Counted from the stretch's first letter, positions 1 to 11,629 are shown. The stretch is DNA of 64,000 nt from Burkholderiaceae bacterium (GCA_004298905.1 SCTK01000018.1:5870-69869), one strand, 5' to 3'. The notes: generated from the letters alone by a model not told the origin. A program made the numbers and translations.

Positions 1-781
1 CAAGCGTGAATACACGTTTGCCCACACCTTCCCGACCGGCACGCACGCGATGTGGTTGTACTACTGGCTGGCAACCTATGGCGTCGACCCGTTCAAGGAT
101 GTGAAAACCATTACCGTGCCACCGCCGCAAATGGTCGCAAACATGCGCGTTGGCAACATGGATGGCTATTGTGTGGGTGAGCCGTGGGGCCACCGCGCCA
201 TCATCGACGGCATCGGCATTACCGCAGTGACGACGCAGGATATCTGGAAAGACCATCCGGAAAAAGTGCTCGGCACGCGTGATGAATTCGTCCAGCAGAA
301 TCCCAACACCTGCCGCGCCGTGGTCAGCGCGATTCTGGAAGCCGGTCGCTGGATCGACAGCGGTTTGATGAACAAGCGCCAGATGGCCGAAGTGATTTCC
401 GCACCGGCCTATGTCAACACCTCGACCGATGCCATCAACGAGCGCATTCTCGGCCGCTATCAAAACGGCCTGGGAAAAACCTGGGATGACCCCAACCACA
501 TGAAGTTCTACAACGACGGCGCGGTGAACTTCCCCTACCTCTCCGACGGCATGTGGTTCCTCACCCAGCACAAACGCTGGGGCTTGCTGAAGACGGATCC
601 GGATTATCTGGCCGTGGCGAAGCAGATCAACAAGATCGATCTGTACAAGCAGGCCGCCACCGCCACCAAGACACCGCTGCCGAAGAGCGACATGCGCACG
701 TCGAAACTGATCGACGGCACGGTGTGGGACGGCAAGGATCCGGCGAAGTACGCCGCGTCGTTCAAGATTCGCGCGGCTTGA
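1..781 (+). CDS. nrtA: Nitrate/nitrite ABC transporter periplasmic substrate-binding protein (NrtA/NasF/CmpA family), C-terminal part; 5' end lies outside the window
   Basis: The frame is open from nt 2 to the stop at 779-781. TFAHTFPTGTHAMWLYYWLA and PPPQMVANMRVGNMDGYCVGEPWGHRAI match this binding-protein family. The cognate permease and ATPase genes follow. Confidence 0.8.
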   Translation, partial: KREYTFAHTFPTGTHAMWLYYWLATYGVDPFKDVKTITVPPPQMVANMRVGNMDGYCVGEPWGHRAIIDGIGITAVTTQDIWKDHPEKVLGTRDEFVQQNPNTCRAVVSAILEAGRWIDSGLMNKRQMAEVISAPAYVNTSTDAINERILGRYQNGLGKTWDDPNHMKFYNDGAVNFPYLSDGMWFLTQHKRWGLLKTDPDYLAVAKQINKIDLYKQAATATKTPLPKSDMRTSKLIDGTVWDGKDPAKYAASFKIRAA

Positions 782-791
782 AATTGGAAAT

Positions 792-884
792 CCCTCCCCC
801 TTCAAGGGGGAGGTTAGGAGGGGGATGGGGTTCGGTCTCAGACGAAACCCATCCCCACCCCGGCCCTCCCCTTGAGGGGGAGGG
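792..884. repeat. Composite REP-like palindromic element (three consecutive hairpins)
   Basis: Seen directly: CCTCCCCC-ttcaa-GGGGGAGG, then GGGGATGGGGTTCG...CGAAACCCATCCCC, then CCCTCCCC-ttga-GGGGAGGG. An element of the same architecture lies at 11712-11832. Track ORFs crossing it are artefacts. Confidence 0.7.
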
Positions 885-904
885 AGTTGAGAAAGGAGTT
901 GAAC

Positions 905-1867
905 ATGAGTGCAGCAATGAATCCAGTCCTCGCCGCCAGGGCGGCACCCAGAGAAAGCAAGACACCGACAATGGTTCCGGCCGCCAAGGCGGTTGAGCCG
1001 CAGCAGGATGCTGCAAATTCGGTTGCGATACCGCCTGCGGCACAGGTCGAGGCAACGCCTGCCGCACAGCCGGTGATTTCGGCAGCGGTCAAACGCAAGA
1101 TACGCAATGAGCGCATCCTGAAGGTCGTGGCGCCCGTGTTCGGCCTGCTACTGTTGCTGCTGGTGTGGGAGATTGTCTCCAAGGGTGGCCAGACGATTCC
1201 CGGCCCGGTTGCCACATTCAAGCATGGCGTGACGATTTTTTCCGATCCGTTTTATCAAAATGGGCCGAACGATCAAGGCATCGCCTACAAGATCATCAAC
1301 TCGCTGGAGCGGGTCGCACTCGGTTTCGGGCTGGCCGCACTGGTTGGCATTCCAGCCGGATTCATGCTGGGCCGCTTCACGTTTTTCAACAACATGTTCA
1401 GCCCCATCATTTCGCTGCTGCGCCCGGTCTCGCCGCTGGCCTGGCTGCCGATTGGGCTGCTGGTTTTCAAGGGTGCCAACCCGGCGGCGATCTGGACGAT
1501 TTTCATTTCCTCGATCTGGCCGATGCTGATCAACACCGCCGTTGGCGTGCAGCGCGTGCCGGCCGATTACATGAACGTGGCCAAGGTGCTCAACCTGTCC
1601 GAGTGGAGAATTTTCACGCGCATTTTGTTTCCCGCCGTGCTGCCCTACATGATGACCGGCGTGCGCCTGTCCATCGGTGTGGCCTGGCTGGTGATCGTCG
1701 CCGCCGAAATGCTCACTGGCGGAGTGGGTGTCGGCTTCTGGGTGTGGGACGAGTGGAACAACCTGAAAGTCGAAAGCATCCTGATCGCCATCATCGTGAT
1801 CGGCGTGATCGGTCTGCTGCTGGAAGCCGCGTTGATGGCCCTGGCAAAACGTTTCTCCTACGAGTGA
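905..1867 (+). CDS. nrtB: Nitrate ABC transporter permease
   Basis: ATG at 905 is preceded by GAAAGGAG. The product is a multi-TM protein ending in VAAEMLTGGVGVGFWVWDEWNNL, typical of NrtB/NasE/TauC-type permeases. The TTG at 872 on the track lies inside the repeat and is unlikely to be the start. Confidence 0.85.
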   Translation: MSAAMNPVLAARAAPRESKTPTMVPAAKAVEPQQDAANSVAIPPAAQVEATPAAQPVISAAVKRKIRNERILKVVAPVFGLLLLLLVWEIVSKGGQTIPGPVATFKHGVTIFSDPFYQNGPNDQGIAYKIINSLERVALGFGLAALVGIPAGFMLGRFTFFNNMFSPIISLLRPVSPLAWLPIGLLVFKGANPAAIWTIFISSIWPMLINTAVGVQRVPADYMNVAKVLNLSEWRIFTRILFPAVLPYMMTGVRLSIGVAWLVIVAAEMLTGGVGVGFWVWDEWNNLKVESILIAIIVIGVIGLLLEAALMALAKRFSYE

Positions 1868-1875
1868 GGCCTGAC

Positions 1876-2688
1876 ATGAGTATCGAAAAACTGGAACGCG
1901 ATTATCTGAAAGTGGAAAACGCCGGCATGGTGTTCGACACCAAGCAGGGTTATTTCACCGCGCTGCGCGATATCAATCTAGCGGTGGCCAAGGGTGAGTT
2001 TGTCACGCTGATCGGCCACTCCGGTTGCGGCAAATCGACGCTGCTGAATTTGATGGCGGGCCTGCTGCAAGCCACCTCCGGCGTCCTGCTGTGCGCCAAC
2101 CGCGAAATCGCTGGCCCGGGCCCGGAACGCTCGATGGTGTTTCAAAACCATTCGCTGCTGCCCTGGCTGACTTGTTATCAAAACGTCCATCTCGCGGTCG
2201 AGCGGGTGTTTGGCGCGAACGAATCCAAGGCGCAGTTGCGTGCCCGCACCCATGCCGCGCTCGAGCTGGTGGGATTGACGCACGCTGCGCACAAACGTCC
2301 CGCCGAAATTTCCGGTGGCATGAAGCAGCGCGTCGGTATTGCCCGCGCGCTGTCGATGGAGCCCAGAGTCTTGTTGATGGATGAACCCTTTGGCGCACTC
2401 GATGCGCTGACGCGCGCCCACCTGCAGGACGAACTGCTCAAGATCGTGGCGCAGACCAAAAGCACGGTGGTCATGGTGACGCACGACGTCGACGAAGCGG
2501 TGTTGTTGTCGGACCGCATCGTCATGATGACCAACGGACCGGCGGCCACCATCGGCGAAGTGCTCAGCGTCGACCTGCCGCGCCCGCGCGACCGCGTCGC
2601 CCTCGCGCAAGATCCGTCCTACATGAAACTGCGCACGCAAGTGCTGGAATTCCTGTATCGCAAGCAAGTACACAAGCAGGCAGCATGA
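1876..2688 (+). CDS. nrtD: Nitrate ABC transporter ATP-binding protein
   Basis: Walker A GHSGCGKST, ABC signature ISGGMKQRVGIARAL and Walker B LLMDEPFGALD are present. ATG at 1876 lies 9 nt after the nrtB stop. The long 1165..2688 track ORF is an upstream extension overlapping nrtB. Confidence 0.85.
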   Translation: MSIEKLERDYLKVENAGMVFDTKQGYFTALRDINLAVAKGEFVTLIGHSGCGKSTLLNLMAGLLQATSGVLLCANREIAGPGPERSMVFQNHSLLPWLTCYQNVHLAVERVFGANESKAQLRARTHAALELVGLTHAAHKRPAEISGGMKQRVGIARALSMEPRVLLMDEPFGALDALTRAHLQDELLKIVAQTKSTVVMVTHDVDEAVLLSDRIVMMTNGPAATIGEVLSVDLPRPRDRVALAQDPSYMKLRTQVLEFLYRKQVHKQAA

Positions 2689-2745: not shown

Positions 2746-4839
2746 ATGAGCGGTAACAAGAAAACGAGTGTAAAAGCAGCAGCAGGTTACGTCGGCAAGT
2801 ATCGCGAAATTCTTTTGGCGGTGGCGTTTTTTCTGGTGTTCGATCTGGCGGTACTGGTTCTGAATTTTTATATCTCGTTCCAGATTTCCGAAGATGCGAA
2901 TGCCATCAACCTGGCTGGGCGTCAGCGTATGTTGTCGCAGCGCATGGCCAAGGCGGCATATGCGATCGACGCTGATTTCTCGGCCGGGGTGTCGACGGGG
3001 GAGAGTGTCGAAGAGTTGAAAAAAACCGTCTCCCTGTTCGATCAAACCTTGCAAGCCTTTGTGCAGGGCGGTGAGGTGACCGGGGCGGGTGGCAATCCCG
3101 TCGTCCTGCAGGCGGTTGAGGCGGCCGGTGGCCGCAAGATCATGGATCAGGCGGTACCGCTGTGGGCTGTGTACCGGGAAGCGCTGCTGCCCTTGCAGCG
3201 CGAGCAACTCAGCGCGGCGGAGATTGCGACGGCGGTTGCCGTGGCACGCGCCAATAACGTCAAGCTGCTCGGCTTGATGAACGATCTGACCAACCATCTG
3301 GAACGCGTGGCAGCGGCCAAGGCCGATCGTTTGCGGCTGGTGCAAACGGCCGGGATTTTGCTGGCGCTGGTCAACTTCGCCTTCATTCTGTTCAAATTCA
3401 TCCGCAAGTTGCGCGAGAATGACCGCGCCATCGAAGCGGCGCAAAACGAGACGGCCGAGATTCTCGGTACCGTGAGAGAGGGGCTGTTTTTGCTTGATGC
3501 ACGCTACAAGATCGGCTCGCAGTATTCGGCCTCGCTGAGCCCGATTCTCGGTCAGCCCATCGTGGCCGGTGAGAACTTTCTCGATGTGCTGAAAAAAATG
3601 GTCCCCACGACCGTCTATGAGACTGCGCGCGATTACATCGAATTGCTGCTCGGCGACCGGGTCAAGGAAAGTCTGGTGCAGGAACTCAATCCACTGATTG
3701 CCGTTGAAGTCCTGGTCTCACTGGACCCGGTGCACCCGGCTTCACGTTTTCTGACGTTTCAATTCAACCGCGTCATGCAGGGCGGCGTGGTGCGGCACTT
3801 GCTGGTGACCGTATCGGATGTGACCGCGCAGGTTGAACTGGAAAGCAAACTTGCGCAGGCGCGTCAAAAGGCACGCACCGAAGTGGCGGTGATGCTAGAT
3901 GTCCTCAAGGTCAGTCCGGAAGTGTTGCGCCGCTTTCTGACCGATACGGAAAAAGCGCTGCTGGAAATCAATGATCAGTTGCGTAGCGTCGGTTCGGGGC
4001 GCCCCGACTATCACCGCCTGATCGACAATGTCTTTCGCAAGATCCATACGATCAAGGGCGATGCAGCGACGCTGGGGCTGGAAATGTTTGAAGAACTGGC
4101 ACACGAGTTTGAATCCCTGTTGCGCCCCTTGCGCGACAACAAGTTGAACGGCGGCCAGGTGAGTGGCGAAGATCTGCTGCGCGTGCCGATGCCGCTGGAT
4201 GAAATGCTGGAACGAGTCACCATGGTGCGCGACATGCTCGCGCGCTTGAGCAGTTATCAGCAGGGCAGCGATGCGGTGGGGAATGCGCGCGAATTCACCG
4301 AACAGTTGCACGCGCTGACACAACGCATCGCCACCGATCATGGCAAGCAAGTCACCTTGCAGGCAGATCTCGATTTGCTCGACGCTCTGCCGCAGGCCAT
4401 GCGCCAGGAGGTCAAGGACATTGTTGTGCAACTGTTGCGCAATGCCGTCGTGCACGGCATCGAACCCGGCATGCAGCGGCGTGCGCTGTCCAAGAACGAA
4501 ACCGGCGCCATTGCCCTGCACCTGCGTAATCAGGACGACGGCGAACTGGAGCTGGTGCTGCGCGATGATGGCCGTGGCATCTCGCCGTATCAGGTGCGCA
4601 CCGCGTTGATCGCATCCGGCCGCTATACCGAGAAGCAATTGAACGAGCTGGATGATCGCAGTTTGTTGTTGAAGATTTTTGAACCGGGTTTTTCAACGGC
4701 AGCGGGACTGTCGCGGCATGCCGGGCAGGGAGTGGGGATGGATGTCGTGCATCAGAAAATTCTGCAACTGGGTGCGCGCTTGCGGGTGGCAACCCGTCCC
4801 AATAGCTACACACAGTTTTCCATCGTGTTCAGTGCGTAG
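2746..4839 (+). CDS. Transmembrane sensor kinase: PilJ/NarX-type periplasmic sensor module fused to a CheA-type HPt + HATPase core, with no CheW-like domain
   Basis: TM1 is ILLAVAFFLVFDLAVLVLNFYISF. AINLAGRQRMLSQRMAK matches the PF13675/P-box-like signature. TM2 is around ILLALVNFAFILFKFI. HPt motif FRKIHTIKGDAATLG is present. The CheA-like ATPase boxes are LLRNAVVHGIE (N), DDGRGI (G1), FEPGFST (F) and GQGVGMDVV (G2). The protein ends about 30 aa after G2. Confidence 0.75.
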   Translation: MSGNKKTSVKAAAGYVGKYREILLAVAFFLVFDLAVLVLNFYISFQISEDANAINLAGRQRMLSQRMAKAAYAIDADFSAGVSTGESVEELKKTVSLFDQTLQAFVQGGEVTGAGGNPVVLQAVEAAGGRKIMDQAVPLWAVYREALLPLQREQLSAAEIATAVAVARANNVKLLGLMNDLTNHLERVAAAKADRLRLVQTAGILLALVNFAFILFKFIRKLRENDRAIEAAQNETAEILGTVREGLFLLDARYKIGSQYSASLSPILGQPIVAGENFLDVLKKMVPTTVYETARDYIELLLGDRVKESLVQELNPLIAVEVLVSLDPVHPASRFLTFQFNRVMQGGVVRHLLVTVSDVTAQVELESKLAQARQKARTEVAVMLDVLKVSPEVLRRFLTDTEKALLEINDQLRSVGSGRPDYHRLIDNVFRKIHTIKGDAATLGLEMFEELAHEFESLLRPLRDNKLNGGQVSGEDLLRVPMPLDEMLERVTMVRDMLARLSSYQQGSDAVGNAREFTEQLHALTQRIATDHGKQVTLQADLDLLDALPQAMRQEVKDIVVQLLRNAVVHGIEPGMQRRALSKNETGAIALHLRNQDDGELELVLRDDGRGISPYQVRTALIASGRYTEKQLNELDDRSLLLKIFEPGFSTAAGLSRHAGQGVGMDVVHQKILQLGARLRVATRPNSYTQFSIVFSA

Positions 4840-4848
4840 CCGGAGCCG

Positions 4849-5217
4849 ATGATGAAACTGATGATCGTGGATGACTCCAATATCATTCGCACCCGCATTG
4901 CCCGCCTCACCGTGGATTCGCGTCTGCCCCTGTTCCAGATTATCGGCATGGCCAAGAATGGATTGGAAGCGCTGTCGCTGGCGCAGCGCTTTCAGCCCAA
5001 GGTGGTGACGATGGATTTGACCATGCCGGAAATGGACGGCATTACCTGTGTCGAGAAACTGTGCCATCTCGACCCGAGCATGCGCATCCTCGTGATTTCG
5101 GCACTGAGCGATAAAACGACCGCGATCAACGCCTTGAAGAAAGGGGCACACGGTTTTTTGCACAAACCCTTCAGCGACGAGCAACTGGTCGGCGGTATGC
5201 TGGAATTGCTTCGGTAG
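4849..5217 (+). CDS. Single-domain CheY-like response regulator
   Basis: 122 aa with LMIVDDS and the phospho-acceptor context VVTMDLTMPEMDG, plus a conserved K in FLHKPF. It starts 10 nt after the kinase stop. Confidence 0.85.
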   Translation: MMKLMIVDDSNIIRTRIARLTVDSRLPLFQIIGMAKNGLEALSLAQRFQPKVVTMDLTMPEMDGITCVEKLCHLDPSMRILVISALSDKTTAINALKKGAHGFLHKPFSDEQLVGGMLELLR

Positions 5218-5249
5218 TTGTAAGGAAAATAAAAAATGAGCGACCAACC

Positions 5250-5723
5250 ATGAGCGACCTGAGCGAATCCCAACTGAAAATTTTTATCGACGCGGTGTTG
5301 CACTACTTCAGTCAGATGACCCAACGCCCCGCCGAAATCAAGACGTCGTATCTGGCTGAGCAGGGCACGCCCAGCTTCGATTACACCGGCTTGATCACGA
5401 CCTCCAATTGTTATCGCGGTTGTGTCTATTTCACCGCGCCACGGCTGATGCTGCGTCAATTGCTGATCGAAATGCGCGAGCCCGACACGACCGAAGCCAA
5501 CCTGCTCGATGCCGTCGGCGAAATCGCCAACACGATTGCCGGCAACGCGCGCCGCCACTTTGGCGAGGCGCTGGAAATTTCTGTACCGGTCGCATTCAAG
5601 GGCGTCGCCGAACAACTCCGGGCCGCTGTGCGCGCACGCCCCTTTGTCATCGTGGTGGGTTGGTGCGGTCATGAGGCTGCGGTCGTAGTGGATATCGAAG
5701 CTGACCCCGCATCATCGCGCTGA
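5250..5723 (+). CDS. CheX-like chemotaxis phosphatase family protein
   Basis: 157 aa. AVGEIANTIAGNARRHFGE resembles the CheX/CheC-type E-x2-N signature helix. The gene is co-directional and tightly spaced after the CheY-like gene. Confidence 0.65.
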   Translation: MSDLSESQLKIFIDAVLHYFSQMTQRPAEIKTSYLAEQGTPSFDYTGLITTSNCYRGCVYFTAPRLMLRQLLIEMREPDTTEANLLDAVGEIANTIAGNARRHFGEALEISVPVAFKGVAEQLRAAVRARPFVIVVGWCGHEAAVVVDIEADPASSR

Positions 5724-5732
5724 AAGGAAAAC

Positions 5733-6089
5733 ATGGAAACGACACGTATCTTCAATAGCGCGGATTATTTTCAACCCGCAGAGGGCGAACCGATCCGTTC
5801 GGTGGTGACGGAGTCGAAAGACGCCGTCGTGGTCGCCTGGCATGTCAAACCGGGGCAAAGCATTCGTCCGCACATCCACCCCAGCGGACAAGACACCTGG
5901 ACCATCCTCTCCGGCAGCGGCCGCTATTTTCTCGAGCAAGACGGCACCTCGCAACAGATCAAGGCAGGCGATGTCGTGATCGCCCCCACCGCCGCCCTGC
6001 ACGGCGTGTTGAACAACGGTACCGTACCGCTCGTATTCATTTCTGTGGTGTCACCGGCCGATGCGGGTTATGAATTGATGGCGCTGTAA
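5733..6089 (+). CDS. Cupin domain protein
   Basis: 118 aa. The pattern HIHPSGQDTWTILSGSG ... AGDVVIAPTAALHGV fits the two cupin motifs G-x5-H-x-H...G and G-x5-P-x-G-x2-H. Confidence 0.7.
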   Translation: METTRIFNSADYFQPAEGEPIRSVVTESKDAVVVAWHVKPGQSIRPHIHPSGQDTWTILSGSGRYFLEQDGTSQQIKAGDVVIAPTAALHGVLNNGTVPLVFISVVSPADAGYELMAL

Positions 6090-6226
6090 ATCGGCCAGAC
6101 TCGGCCGACGTGCCTCCGTACGCTAAAGGTTTGATAGAGCTTATACTGCACGGGATTCAATTCCTCTCAACACAAGACAGATCTCTATCTGGAGACGCTG
6201 ACCTGTCGCAGACCAAAGGAGCCATC

Positions 6227-6550
6227 ATGGGTGTGATTTTTGTTATCGCAATCACTGTTTTCGTTCTTGCAGGTTTTTGGAAGGTATTCGAAAAGGCAGG
6301 GCAGCCGGGTTGGGGTGCGCTCGTTCCTATCTACAACGGCTACCTTATGGCCAAAGTCGCCGGGCGCCCAGGGTGGTGGTTGATTTTGATGTTCATCCCA
6401 CTCGTCAACTTCATCATCGCCATTATTCTGTCGCTTGATATCGCGAAAAAATTCGGACAGGGCGCTGGGTTTGGCATCGGGCTTCTCCTCCTCGGCTTCA
6501 TCTTTTACCCCATCCTGGGTTTTGGAGATGCGGTCTATCAGAATAATTAA
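6227..6550 (+). CDS. Small integral membrane protein (DUF5684-like)
   Basis: ATG at 6227 is preceded by AAAGGAG. There are three predicted TM helices. WKVFEKAGQPGWGALVPIYN ... GRPGWW matches what I recall of DUF5684. The track start at 6110 has no RBS. Confidence 0.6.
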   Translation: MGVIFVIAITVFVLAGFWKVFEKAGQPGWGALVPIYNGYLMAKVAGRPGWWLILMFIPLVNFIIAIILSLDIAKKFGQGAGFGIGLLLLGFIFYPILGFGDAVYQNN

Positions 6551-10288: not shown

Positions 10289-11629
10289 CTACAAACTTAG
10301 CGAATATTTCCTGTCAGCGCGTTTGTGCAGTGGATCAAATCCCAGCTCCCTTGTCTCTCCGTTCCAGTCAAAAGGGAGACCGGTATAAGGGTTACACCAC
10401 TCAGTTGGGAGTTTCTTGTTTGCTTCTGAAACCCCAGTGTTCATCAATCTGATTTTCCAGCTCGCACCAACCAGCCGGTTCATTGCATACAGATCAAATA
10501 CGCGATCGATGTAGTCCACATAACTGGTGGACGCCATCCATGCCGATATTCTGCCGATAGGGTTGTACGCCCAGGAAATATCTGGTTGAGCCATGGATTC
10601 AAGCCGGTGTGTCAACGCCGCGCGCTCCTGTACCCACTCATGCGGTTTTAAGCGGGAAACCGCCATGTATTCTGACACCCACTTAGCCGTTTGATTTTCA
10701 AAATCCTGGCGGTTATAGACCAAGCGAGTCAGGAATGACAAAAGATAATCAAGGCGCTGCTCAGGCAGAGATGATAGTGCCTTGTTGTTACCAAGAATTT
10801 CACCAACTTTGCGTATGAAATCGTTTTCATAGCGGATGGCAGGGCTCATGTCGAGTGAAGATTCTGAAAAGATCAAGGCACGTGCGATCAGCGCCTCATA
10901 GCGCCGCAAATCTTCTAGACGCATATCGGCAATAAATTCCCCCAGCAGGCGATAATTCTTGTGCAGTTGCACGGTAGCAATCATTTTCATAATCAGGGAT
11001 CTGGATTGCTCGAATACAAGCCGATTGAAACGAATGTCCATTTCCAGCGCTTGCAGCGGCTCTTCGCGCTTGCCGCCAATATATTGGGCGGTGATTTCTG
11101 TCAAAAAAAGATTCTGCGCCTGAGTGTGCAGTGCGATATTCGGTAAGTGTGGACCGGCCACAGCTTGTTCTTCGAATGACTGAAATTTCTGCAGCGTTCG
11201 ATAGCGACCCAGCAAATGCGCATTTGCTGTCAAGGTTGCACGCAATTTCTTCTGATCGGCTGCGCGAATTTCCTGCAGACATCGTTGCGCCAGAGGGTTG
11301 CAGAATTTTTCGATGTTGATGTGCGATTCAGGAATTGGCTCAACAGGGTCTGTTGTTCCAAATCCGAGTGCATTGGCTTGATTGTATTTGTCCAGACGCC
11401 TTCTGCCAGCATCGATTGGGTCGGAATTTTTGTCGGCATCGAACCCGAGCATATACAGATAAGCATTGTCCCGATCTTGTAGCGTGTTGACGAAAGGCTT
11501 GGCGAGTTCTACTGCTGCCGGACTCGGCTTGCGATCAAACAGGTTGATCAGAATCACGAGAAGAATGCAGGCAACGGCTATGAGCAGCAACCATTTGACG
11601 ATCTTCCAGGTGCGTCTCAACAACATCAT
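10289..11629 (-). CDS. Hypothetical membrane-anchored protein, 446 aa, no family recognised
   Basis: A long uninterrupted ORF in a low-GC segment (hand count 42 % in 10741-10800). The N-terminal TM anchor is IVKWLLLIAVACILLVILINLF. The rest is hydrophilic and helix-rich. It is the only substantial ORF here. Confidence 0.7.
   Translation of the reverse strand: MMLLRRTWKIVKWLLLIAVACILLVILINLFDRKPSPAAVELAKPFVNTLQDRDNAYLYMLGFDADKNSDPIDAGRRRLDKYNQANALGFGTTDPVEPIPESHINIEKFCNPLAQRCLQEIRAADQKKLRATLTANAHLLGRYRTLQKFQSFEEQAVAGPHLPNIALHTQAQNLFLTEITAQYIGGKREEPLQALEMDIRFNRLVFEQSRSLIMKMIATVQLHKNYRLLGEFIADMRLEDLRRYEALIARALIFSESSLDMSPAIRYENDFIRKVGEILGNNKALSSLPEQRLDYLLSFLTRLVYNRQDFENQTAKWVSEYMAVSRLKPHEWVQERAALTHRLESMAQPDISWAYNPIGRISAWMASTSYVDYIDRVFDLYAMNRLVGASWKIRLMNTGVSEANKKLPTEWCNPYTGLPFDWNGETRELGFDPLHKRADRKYSLSL

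Follow-up and report, generated by a model that had tools for sequence, protein, structure and literature searches.

CheA is taught as a histidine kinase that is unable to sense for itself. The class III histidine kinases (HKIII), reportedly described computationally by Adebali et al. in 2017 (J Bacteriol 199:e00218-17), are said to carry sensory domains on the kinase itself together with a CheA-type core, to have no dimerisation domain and to be accompanied by a single-domain regulator and CheX, and control of type IV pili is said to have been proposed for them. In the passage of PMC6501615 that paraphrases Adebali et al., HKIII kinases occur also in genomes without chemotaxis genes and are invariably accompanied by a marker gene for motility by type IV pili. 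In the window studied here, a stretch of 64,000 nucleotides (nt) from a Burkholderiaceae bacterium (GCA_004298905.1, SCTK01000018.1:5870-69869), three co-oriented open reading frames (ORFs) on the plus strand (2746-5723) encode a sensor kinase, a CheY-like response regulator and a CheX-like phosphatase. The locus is characterised by its domain architecture, its catalytic residues, the conservation of this trio, its independence of CheW and of methyl-accepting chemotaxis proteins (MCPs) and a statistical link to nitrate genes, all of which are observed, and it quite probably represents a three-gene HKIII-type phosphorelay working without a receptor array, with nitrate as the predicted ligand of the sensor. 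The design itself is already known since 2017, and the link to nitrate is the new addition; the literature searches found no experimental study of the HKIII class and no direct description of this architecture.

According to the CheA survey of Berry, Andrianova and Zhulin (2023; PMC10782961), CheA is without a sensor domain, and each CheA surveyed there has Hpt, H-kinase_dim, HATPase_c and CheW. A Pfam scan of the 697-aa class III, CheA-like kinase of the window (2746..4839) gave PilJ (PF13675, residues 42-153, E 1e-14), Hpt (PF01627, residues 392-490, E 1e-11) and HATPase_c (PF02518, residues 556-695, E 8e-13); H-kinase_dim, HisKA, HisKA_3, HAMP and CheW were not found in it. The best NCBIfam and PDB matches were to CheA, over its P1 and P4 parts only. 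Because H-kinase_dim (P3) and CheW (P5) are absent and the protein has a sensor of its own, it falls outside the definition of CheA. Shared with CheA are a P1-type Hpt with the phospho-accepting histidine on its second helix and a P4 domain with HGIE and the N, G1, F and G2 boxes, as well as CheY as substrate and CheX as phosphatase, the latter two being predictions from sequence in the case of the window kinase. The kinase differs in having no P2, P3 or P5, in bearing its own transmembrane (TM) sensor and a PAS-like domain and in not needing CheW or MCPs, and its Hpt-P4 pair is joined by short segments, whereas CheA has long tethers.

The order of parts was derived from Pfam, hydropathy and an AlphaFold model built on 93 homologues, with a mean predicted local distance difference test (pLDDT) score of 90.8; all features lie on the plus strand. 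Hydropathy showed exactly two peaks, at about residues 22-44 and 197-219, both of which are helices in the model (TM helix 1, 2809..2877; TM helix 2, 3334..3402). Between them lies a periplasmic four-helix bundle of the PilJ type (residues 45-196, 2878..3333), assigned from PF13675, the model and its best solved match, 6GCV. The single long helix that holds TM helix 2 extends in the model to residue 242 and is followed by a cytoplasmic PAS-like domain (residues 243-358, 3472..3819, pLDDT mostly >90) with the element order two strands, four helices, three strands. A connecting helix (residues 360-387) leads to the Hpt or P1-type four-helix bundle (residues 391-502, 3916..4251), which is supported by PF01627 and by matches to CheA P1 structures; the predicted phospho-accepting His434 (codon at 4045-4047) lies on its second helix. 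A loop of 11 residues separates the end of the Hpt (502) from the first helix of the CheA-type ATP-binding domain P4 with its N, G1, F and G2 boxes (residues 514-697, 4285..4836), and the protein stops with the P4 fold. With only 11 residues, this loop could not accommodate a P3 hairpin, and by both Pfam and the model the protein terminates at P4 without a P5.

The first-pass annotation, made from the sequence alone, had described two TM helices bracketing a periplasmic module, followed by a CheA-type HPt-ATPase core without P3 or a P5/CheW-like domain, and the present analysis agrees with it on each of these points: CheA structures are the nearest solved ones to the core, and the two motifs that it had quoted were located in the kinase (AINLAGRQRMLSQRMAK, residues 53-69; FRKIHTIKGDAATLG, residues 430-444). 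What it had called a cytoplasmic linker of about 200 aa was found instead to be a conserved PAS-like alpha/beta domain (246-358) plus the helix 360-387. No Pfam match was obtained for the PAS-like domain in the window kinase, and one relative matches PAS_4; I239, G246, N315, P316, F340 and D358 of this region are invariant across the kinase family. Foldseek placed the C-terminal domain on the P4 of Thermotoga CheA with a target-normalised TM-score of 0.84 (root-mean-square deviation 2.3 A) and aligned the PAS-helix-ATPase part with kinases of the PAS-DHp-CA type, for example YF1 and WalK. Among the homologues compared (93 and 67 diverse homologues), His434, Lys437 and Gly438 are conserved at 90% or more, and N566, the HGIE of residues 570-573, D607, G609 and G611 (G1 box), F645 and G660, G662 and G664 (G2 box) are invariant in P4. 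Since the catalytic residues are invariant or nearly so, the kinase looks catalytically competent from its sequence.

A word-based search returned at least 1390 homologues of the kinase, and the best 120 of these all had the same three Pfam domains, most being about 680-730 aa long. When the cytoplasmic core was used as query in an exhaustive HMMER search, 1219 representative clusters (50% identity) were obtained at E <= 1e-30. In 67 spaced representatives of these clusters, HATPase_c was present in 67, Hpt in 63 and PilJ in 45, with Cache or HAMP in a few, and neither CheW nor H-kinase_dim was found in any of the 67. The loci were surveyed over 185,579 species genomes, and the order kinase-CheY-CheX and the strand are kept in essentially all of about 60 full-length loci, the few exceptions being mostly at contig ends. 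These loci span the Beta- and Gammaproteobacteria (Burkholderiales, Methylophilaceae, Thiobacillus, Rhodocyclaceae, Neisseria, Kingella, Psychrobacter, Moraxella, Cellvibrio, Lysobacter and Steroidobacteraceae) and one Methylacidiphilales genome, and in a sample of 301 genomes from 143 genera the trio occurs in the order of the window in 10 genomes and 10 genera. Clustering of the neighbouring ORFs of 63 loci found nothing conserved family-wide beyond the three genes; a conserved output gene adjoining the trio was rejected as a candidate, none being kept across these loci.

Three Neisseriaceae genomes, those of Neisseria wadsworthii, N. musculi and Kingella pumchi, carry the trio, and no CheW or MCP domain was found in them; in Psychrobacter and Moraxella the Pil-Chp set alone is present. 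The occurrence of the trio in genomes with neither CheW nor MCP shows that the module is independent of chemoreceptor arrays, as the first-pass annotation had supposed. It had also seen no MCP, CheW, CheR or CheB gene nearby. The contig of the window (75.6 kb) was found to contain neither a CheW nor an MCP domain, CheR and CheB not being searched for directly; the source genome has nine MCPs and three canonical che clusters, and each of its CheW and MCP matches falls on a contig other than this one. As HMMER often misses P3 in true CheAs (PMC10782961), the kinase might alternatively be taken for an ordinary CheA with overlooked P3 and P5, or for the product of a truncated gene, working in arrays. 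This is hardly credible in view of the short Hpt-P4 loop, the end of the protein with the P4 fold in the model, the agreement in length and end among sampled homologues of a family with >1000 matches, the count of CheW domains (0 of 67), the two TM helices and periplasmic domain of the window kinase and the family members in genomes without CheW or MCP.

The kinase has its own sensor, an Hpt and a CheA-type catalytic domain, no HisKA, DHp, H-kinase_dim or CheW, and an adjacent regulator and CheX. On all the criteria of the HKIII class it thus looks like a typical member, with the reservation, which counts against the assignment, that these criteria are those reported for the class, in part by a citing paper. 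Measured by them, the architecture, the partners, the occurrence without chemotaxis genes and the presence of pilT are the same, with no structural difference; the source genome has three PilT-family genes above the cut-off. It should also be noted that the window locus has no soluble chemoreceptor gene.

Some members of the family show additions of their own. In Steroidobacteraceae (L041:6513-9954, likewise L043, L046, L047, L051 and L054), two genes precede the trio, one for a protein of about 690 aa with tetratricopeptide repeats (TPR) and a TonB_C end and one for a protein of about 450 aa with a Ser/Thr kinase domain; this pair is a lineage-specific extension of the module. In Psychrobacter (L027:7473-13600 and nine other loci), PilJ is not detectable, there are two tandem CheX genes, and a major facilitator superfamily (MFS) transporter and an SBP_bac_3 solute-binding protein are encoded directly upstream of the trio; the latter protein might deliver a ligand to the sensor. 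The representative sequences also include a protein of 4858 aa (P0197) with 25 distinct regions of similarity to the query and a C-terminal P4 of the CheA type; it may be a giant multi-Hpt ChpA-like kinase.

For the two genes behind the kinase, the CheY-like and CheX-like products proposed at first pass were borne out by Pfam matches, intact active-site residues and conservation of the partners. The CheY-like protein (4849..5217, 122 aa; Response_reg PF00072, E 4e-24) is a lone receiver with no DNA-binding domain in the Pfam scan, and its nearest solved relatives are archaeal, Thermotoga and Bacillus-type CheYs. In 72 such partners D8, D9, D56, S84, F103 and K106 are invariant, a set which comprises the acidic pair, the phospho-acceptor aspartate, the serine, the lysine and the aromatic switch F103. 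The CheX-like protein (5250..5723, 157 aa; PF13690, E 7e-16) is encoded by the sole CheX-family gene of the genome (a single tblastn match). It fits the active-site motif D/S-x3-E-x2-N ... P, and D87, E91, N94 and P113 are invariant in 71 partners; the spacing from N to P is 18 residues, the spacing in the CheX consensus being 22. Against solved structures weak matches alone were obtained (E 0.02-0.25), and membership of the CheX family is assigned because of the Pfam match and the conserved motif.

The closest described relative of the sensor is McpN (PA2788) of Pseudomonas aeruginosa, the PilJ domain of which was solved with nitrate bound (Martin-Mora et al., 2019; PMC6381276). In McpN, Gly58, Ala59 and Met62 touch nitrate, and Arg61, which hydrogen-bonds nitrate, is essential, its loss abolishing binding; the N-box, [IVL]-[ND]-x-A-G-x-Q-R-M-L-[ST]-Q, was put forward in the same study as the marker of nitrate-binding PilJ domains (PMC6381276). 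The sensor of the window kinase contains an exact match to this pattern at all twelve positions (INLAGRQRMLSQ, residues 54-65, 2905..2940). When the periplasmic domain was compared by itself with solved structures, the best match was 6GCV, which is the ligand-binding domain of McpN with nitrate, and Arg61 of the window domain aligns on Arg61 of that structure. In both proteins two TM helices flank a periplasmic four-helix bundle of the PilJ type, the N-box core IN-AG-QRMLSQ is identical in them, and Gly58, Arg61 and Met62 of the kinase bear the same numbers as the nitrate-contacting positions of McpN. The two differ in what follows the sensor: McpN has an MCP signalling domain and acts via CheW and CheA in arrays with methylation, whereas the window sensor is joined directly to the kinase. 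Across 24 close relatives of the window kinase, G58, R59 and R61 do not vary. The periplasmic signature which the first-pass annotation had likened to PilJ and NarX sensors is present in the form of PF13675 (E 1e-14) and the exact N-box, and from the complete N-box nitrate is predicted to be the ligand, possibly together with nitrite; judged by the sequence, the ligand is probably nitrate.

NarX and NarQ share with the window kinase a periplasmic four-helix bundle (dimeric in NarX/NarQ), an Arg-containing box next to TM helix 1, the union of sensor and kinase in one polypeptide and a nitrate signal, the last only predicted for the window kinase. They differ in their HAMP, GAF-like and HisKA_3 (DHp) domains, none of which was found in the window kinase with Pfam, in their class I CA domain and in phosphorylating the DNA-binding NarL/NarP. 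The source genome also encodes, outside the window, a paralogue on the minus strand (C3:41012-42553) with a front end like that of the kinase, namely a similar TM helix 1, a PilJ-type sensor with a near-N-box (INIAGRQRMLTE), TM helix 2 and a PAS-like segment, and with GGDEF in place of Hpt-P4. As this paralogue ends in a GGDEF diguanylate cyclase, the PilJ sensor type may also feed cyclic di-GMP (c-di-GMP) signalling in the source organism. In Pseudomonas putida, c-di-GMP inhibits NasT (2023, PMC10783516).

By its sensors, the family splits into a subfamily with an N-box or near-N-box and subfamilies with degenerate or unrelated sensors. Genes for nitrate uptake and assimilation (nrtABD, nasT, nirBD-nasA) adjoin 10 of the 29 other N-box or near-N-box loci, or 11 of 30 when the window is counted; among the 42 loci that have other sensors there is no such case (Fisher p = 1.8e-5, in a test which ignores kinship). 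On the kinase tree, linkage to nitrate genes changed at least three times. Three arrangements were seen: NasT-NrtABD-kinase-CheY-CheX in the window, its nearest relatives and Comamonadaceae; NasT-kinase-CheY-CheX-NrtABD in a Thiobacillus genome; and, in a metagenome relative with 56% identity (L109:3685-16609), a co-oriented NasT-NrtA-NrtB-NrtD-kinase-CheY-CheX-NirB-NirD-NasA, which is the clearest case of the trio inside a complete nitrate assimilation operon. The first-pass annotation had named a conventional HisKA core, and a cluster never linked to nitrate genes in other genomes, as findings that would speak against it; HisKA was not found, and the linkage recurs elsewhere.

A number of points weigh against a nitrate-sensing phosphorelay. 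PilJ of P. aeruginosa has two PilJ modules, and neither binds nitrate (PMC6381276). About two thirds of the N-box loci have no nitrate genes nearby, and in Janthinobacterium, Noviherbaspirillum and one metagenome contig the trio lies among housekeeping genes. Of the linked loci, four are from Comamonadaceae and two (L106 and L107) encode the same protein, and the Fisher test is not corrected for phylogeny. For ligand binding as well as for autophosphorylation, phosphotransfer to CheY and the activity of CheX, the predictions are drawn from sequence. The sensor could respond to another ligand or to a partner protein, its site behind nrtD being a lineage-specific accident of gene order. The N-box loci away from nitrate genes and the PilJ domains that do not bind nitrate are in keeping with this, as are relatives with other sensors which adjoin solute-binding proteins as possible ligand carriers (SBP_bac_3 in Psychrobacter). 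It is nevertheless considered unlikely, as twelve of twelve N-box positions match, Arg61 included, and nitrate-gene linkage is confined to the N-box subfamily, in which it appears in several lineages and arrangements.

Nitrate transport genes lie directly upstream of the trio, as the first-pass annotation had stated. The 3' part of nrtA, for a periplasmic nitrate-type binding protein of an ATP-binding cassette (ABC) transporter, occupies 2..781 on the plus strand (NMT1_2 PF13379, E 2e-57); its start is 551 nt before the window, and the complete ORF (C10:5319-6650) carries a twin-arginine translocation (Tat) signal, SRRRVIQ. It is followed on the same strand by nrtB, for the permease (872..1867; TIGR01183 ntrB, 240 bits against a curated cut-off of 209), the likely start of which is the ATG at 905, and by nrtD, for an ATPase of the ntrCD type (1876..2688; TIGR01184, 339 bits with the curated cut-off at 292). 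The listed ORF of nrtD, 1165-2688, is over-extended, homologues being of 267-273 aa. Further upstream on contig C10, 0.8 kb before the window, lies the gene for a NasT-like protein (L089:4423-5046) that combines a receiver-like domain with ANTAR; its receiver has neither the acidic pair nor the conserved lysine and is a pseudo-receiver. The nirB and the nasA-like gene of the source genome are on another contig.

The kinase, CheY and CheX ORFs (2746-4839, 4849-5217 and 5250-5723) were found at the positions first given for them, and the distance of 57 nt between nrtD and the kinase gene was measured again at the same value; the gap between the kinase and CheY genes is 9 nt, not 10 nt as given before. 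In the 57-nt gap no terminator-like hairpin was found. As such a hairpin is missing and the distance to nrtD is short, the trio is probably co-transcribed with the nasT-controlled nitrate uptake genes and made during nitrate assimilation. A Cupin_2 gene (5733..6089, plus strand) starts 9 nt 3' of cheX and is probably co-transcribed with it; as it is kept behind the trio only in the closest relative (L106/L107), it is placed outside the core module. Further along the window are a small membrane protein of family DUF5684 (6110-6550) and, on the minus strand, an ORF of 446 aa (10289-11629) for which no Pfam match was found at E <= 0.001.

The trio was seen embedded in nas operons, with three different arrangements; in one case it stands directly between nasT and nrtA, in another between nrtD and nirB. 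This context suggests a role in nitrate assimilation itself. One form of such a role would be that CheY, or CheY-P, acts on NasT or NrtABD, with the kinase as an external sensor of the nas regulon that replaces NasS. The source genome, which is 100% complete, has NasT and a single NrtA-like gene; as this gene carries a Tat signal, there is no NasS paralogue, and NasT without a NasS paralogue is the pattern in 8 of 9 N-box-kinase genomes. However, relatives of the same bacterial family without the kinase mostly have a single NrtA-like gene too, so the absence of NasS is not specific to kinase carriers; the trio is far from nasT in most genomes, and family versions with other sensors stand in very different gene contexts. 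Regulation of assimilation by this route is therefore rated as quite improbable. As NasS absence fails to separate carriers from non-carriers, the kinase as a NasS substitute for NasT was dropped as a candidate and kept solely as this low-probability rival, and direct phosphorylation of NasT was set aside as unlikely because both the acidic pair and the conserved lysine are missing from its receiver.

The output could also be sought at the flagellar motor, with the CheY-like protein acting on it or the Hpt cross-phosphorylating canonical CheY/CheB, which would amount to an array-free and methylation-free swimming response to nitrate. The source genome is flagellated (FliM) and has the canonical che clusters and MCPs mentioned above, and the CheY-like partner, in which the aromatic switch F103 is retained, most resembles CheYs from Thermotoga and archaea that bind the motor. 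But the same CheY and CheX occur in the non-flagellated Psychrobacter, Moraxella, Neisseria and Kingella, three of the genomes being without che genes, so the flagellar motor cannot be the conserved output; and gradient sensing is not expected, as the module has no CheR/CheB adaptation system. A motor-directed pathway is thus regarded as very unlikely.

For the phosphorelay with nitrate as predicted ligand, a course of events may be proposed. The kinase would dimerise through its sensor, TM and PAS parts, like NarX/NarQ and McpN, and nitrate would bind in the PilJ bundle at the interface between the two subunits. From there the signal would pass through TM helix 2 to the PAS-like domain and by the connecting helix to the Hpt-P4 pair, where P4 would phosphorylate His434, and His434 would hand the phosphoryl group on to Asp56 of the neighbouring CheY-like partner. 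Its removal by the neighbouring CheX-like partner would then reset the system and set the time constant. Among the clustered neighbours of the 63 loci, no gene for a target of CheY-P was found near the trio. Type IV pili as the output fit the phyletic pattern, though this pattern discriminates weakly. As a tentative proposal, which we regard as possible, the N-box branch of the HKIII would be a dedicated array-free, methylation-free pathway for external nitrate which is made together with the genes for nitrate uptake and reduction, in which one receptor-kinase would sense nitrate in the periplasm, and whose own CheY and CheX may act as a switch for behaviour on surfaces (type IV pili, attachment) or adjust uptake and assimilation to the supply.

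The HKIII family breaks the rule that CheA has no sensor and dispenses with arrays, CheW and methylation. Here the N-box, defined only in 2019, is found in the sensor of an HKIII kinase, and a third of such loci are in or beside nitrate assimilation clusters. The window adds a predicted ligand, an expression condition and phenotypes to look for in mutants, by which an orphan class becomes directly testable, and it offers a simple system for the regulation of a CheA-type P1-P4 pair without P3 and P5. If the array-free nitrate pathway is true, it would give the whole HKIII class its first ligand and its first physiological role, and bacteria would have in it a nitrate sensor of a third kind, next to NarX/NarQ and McpN.

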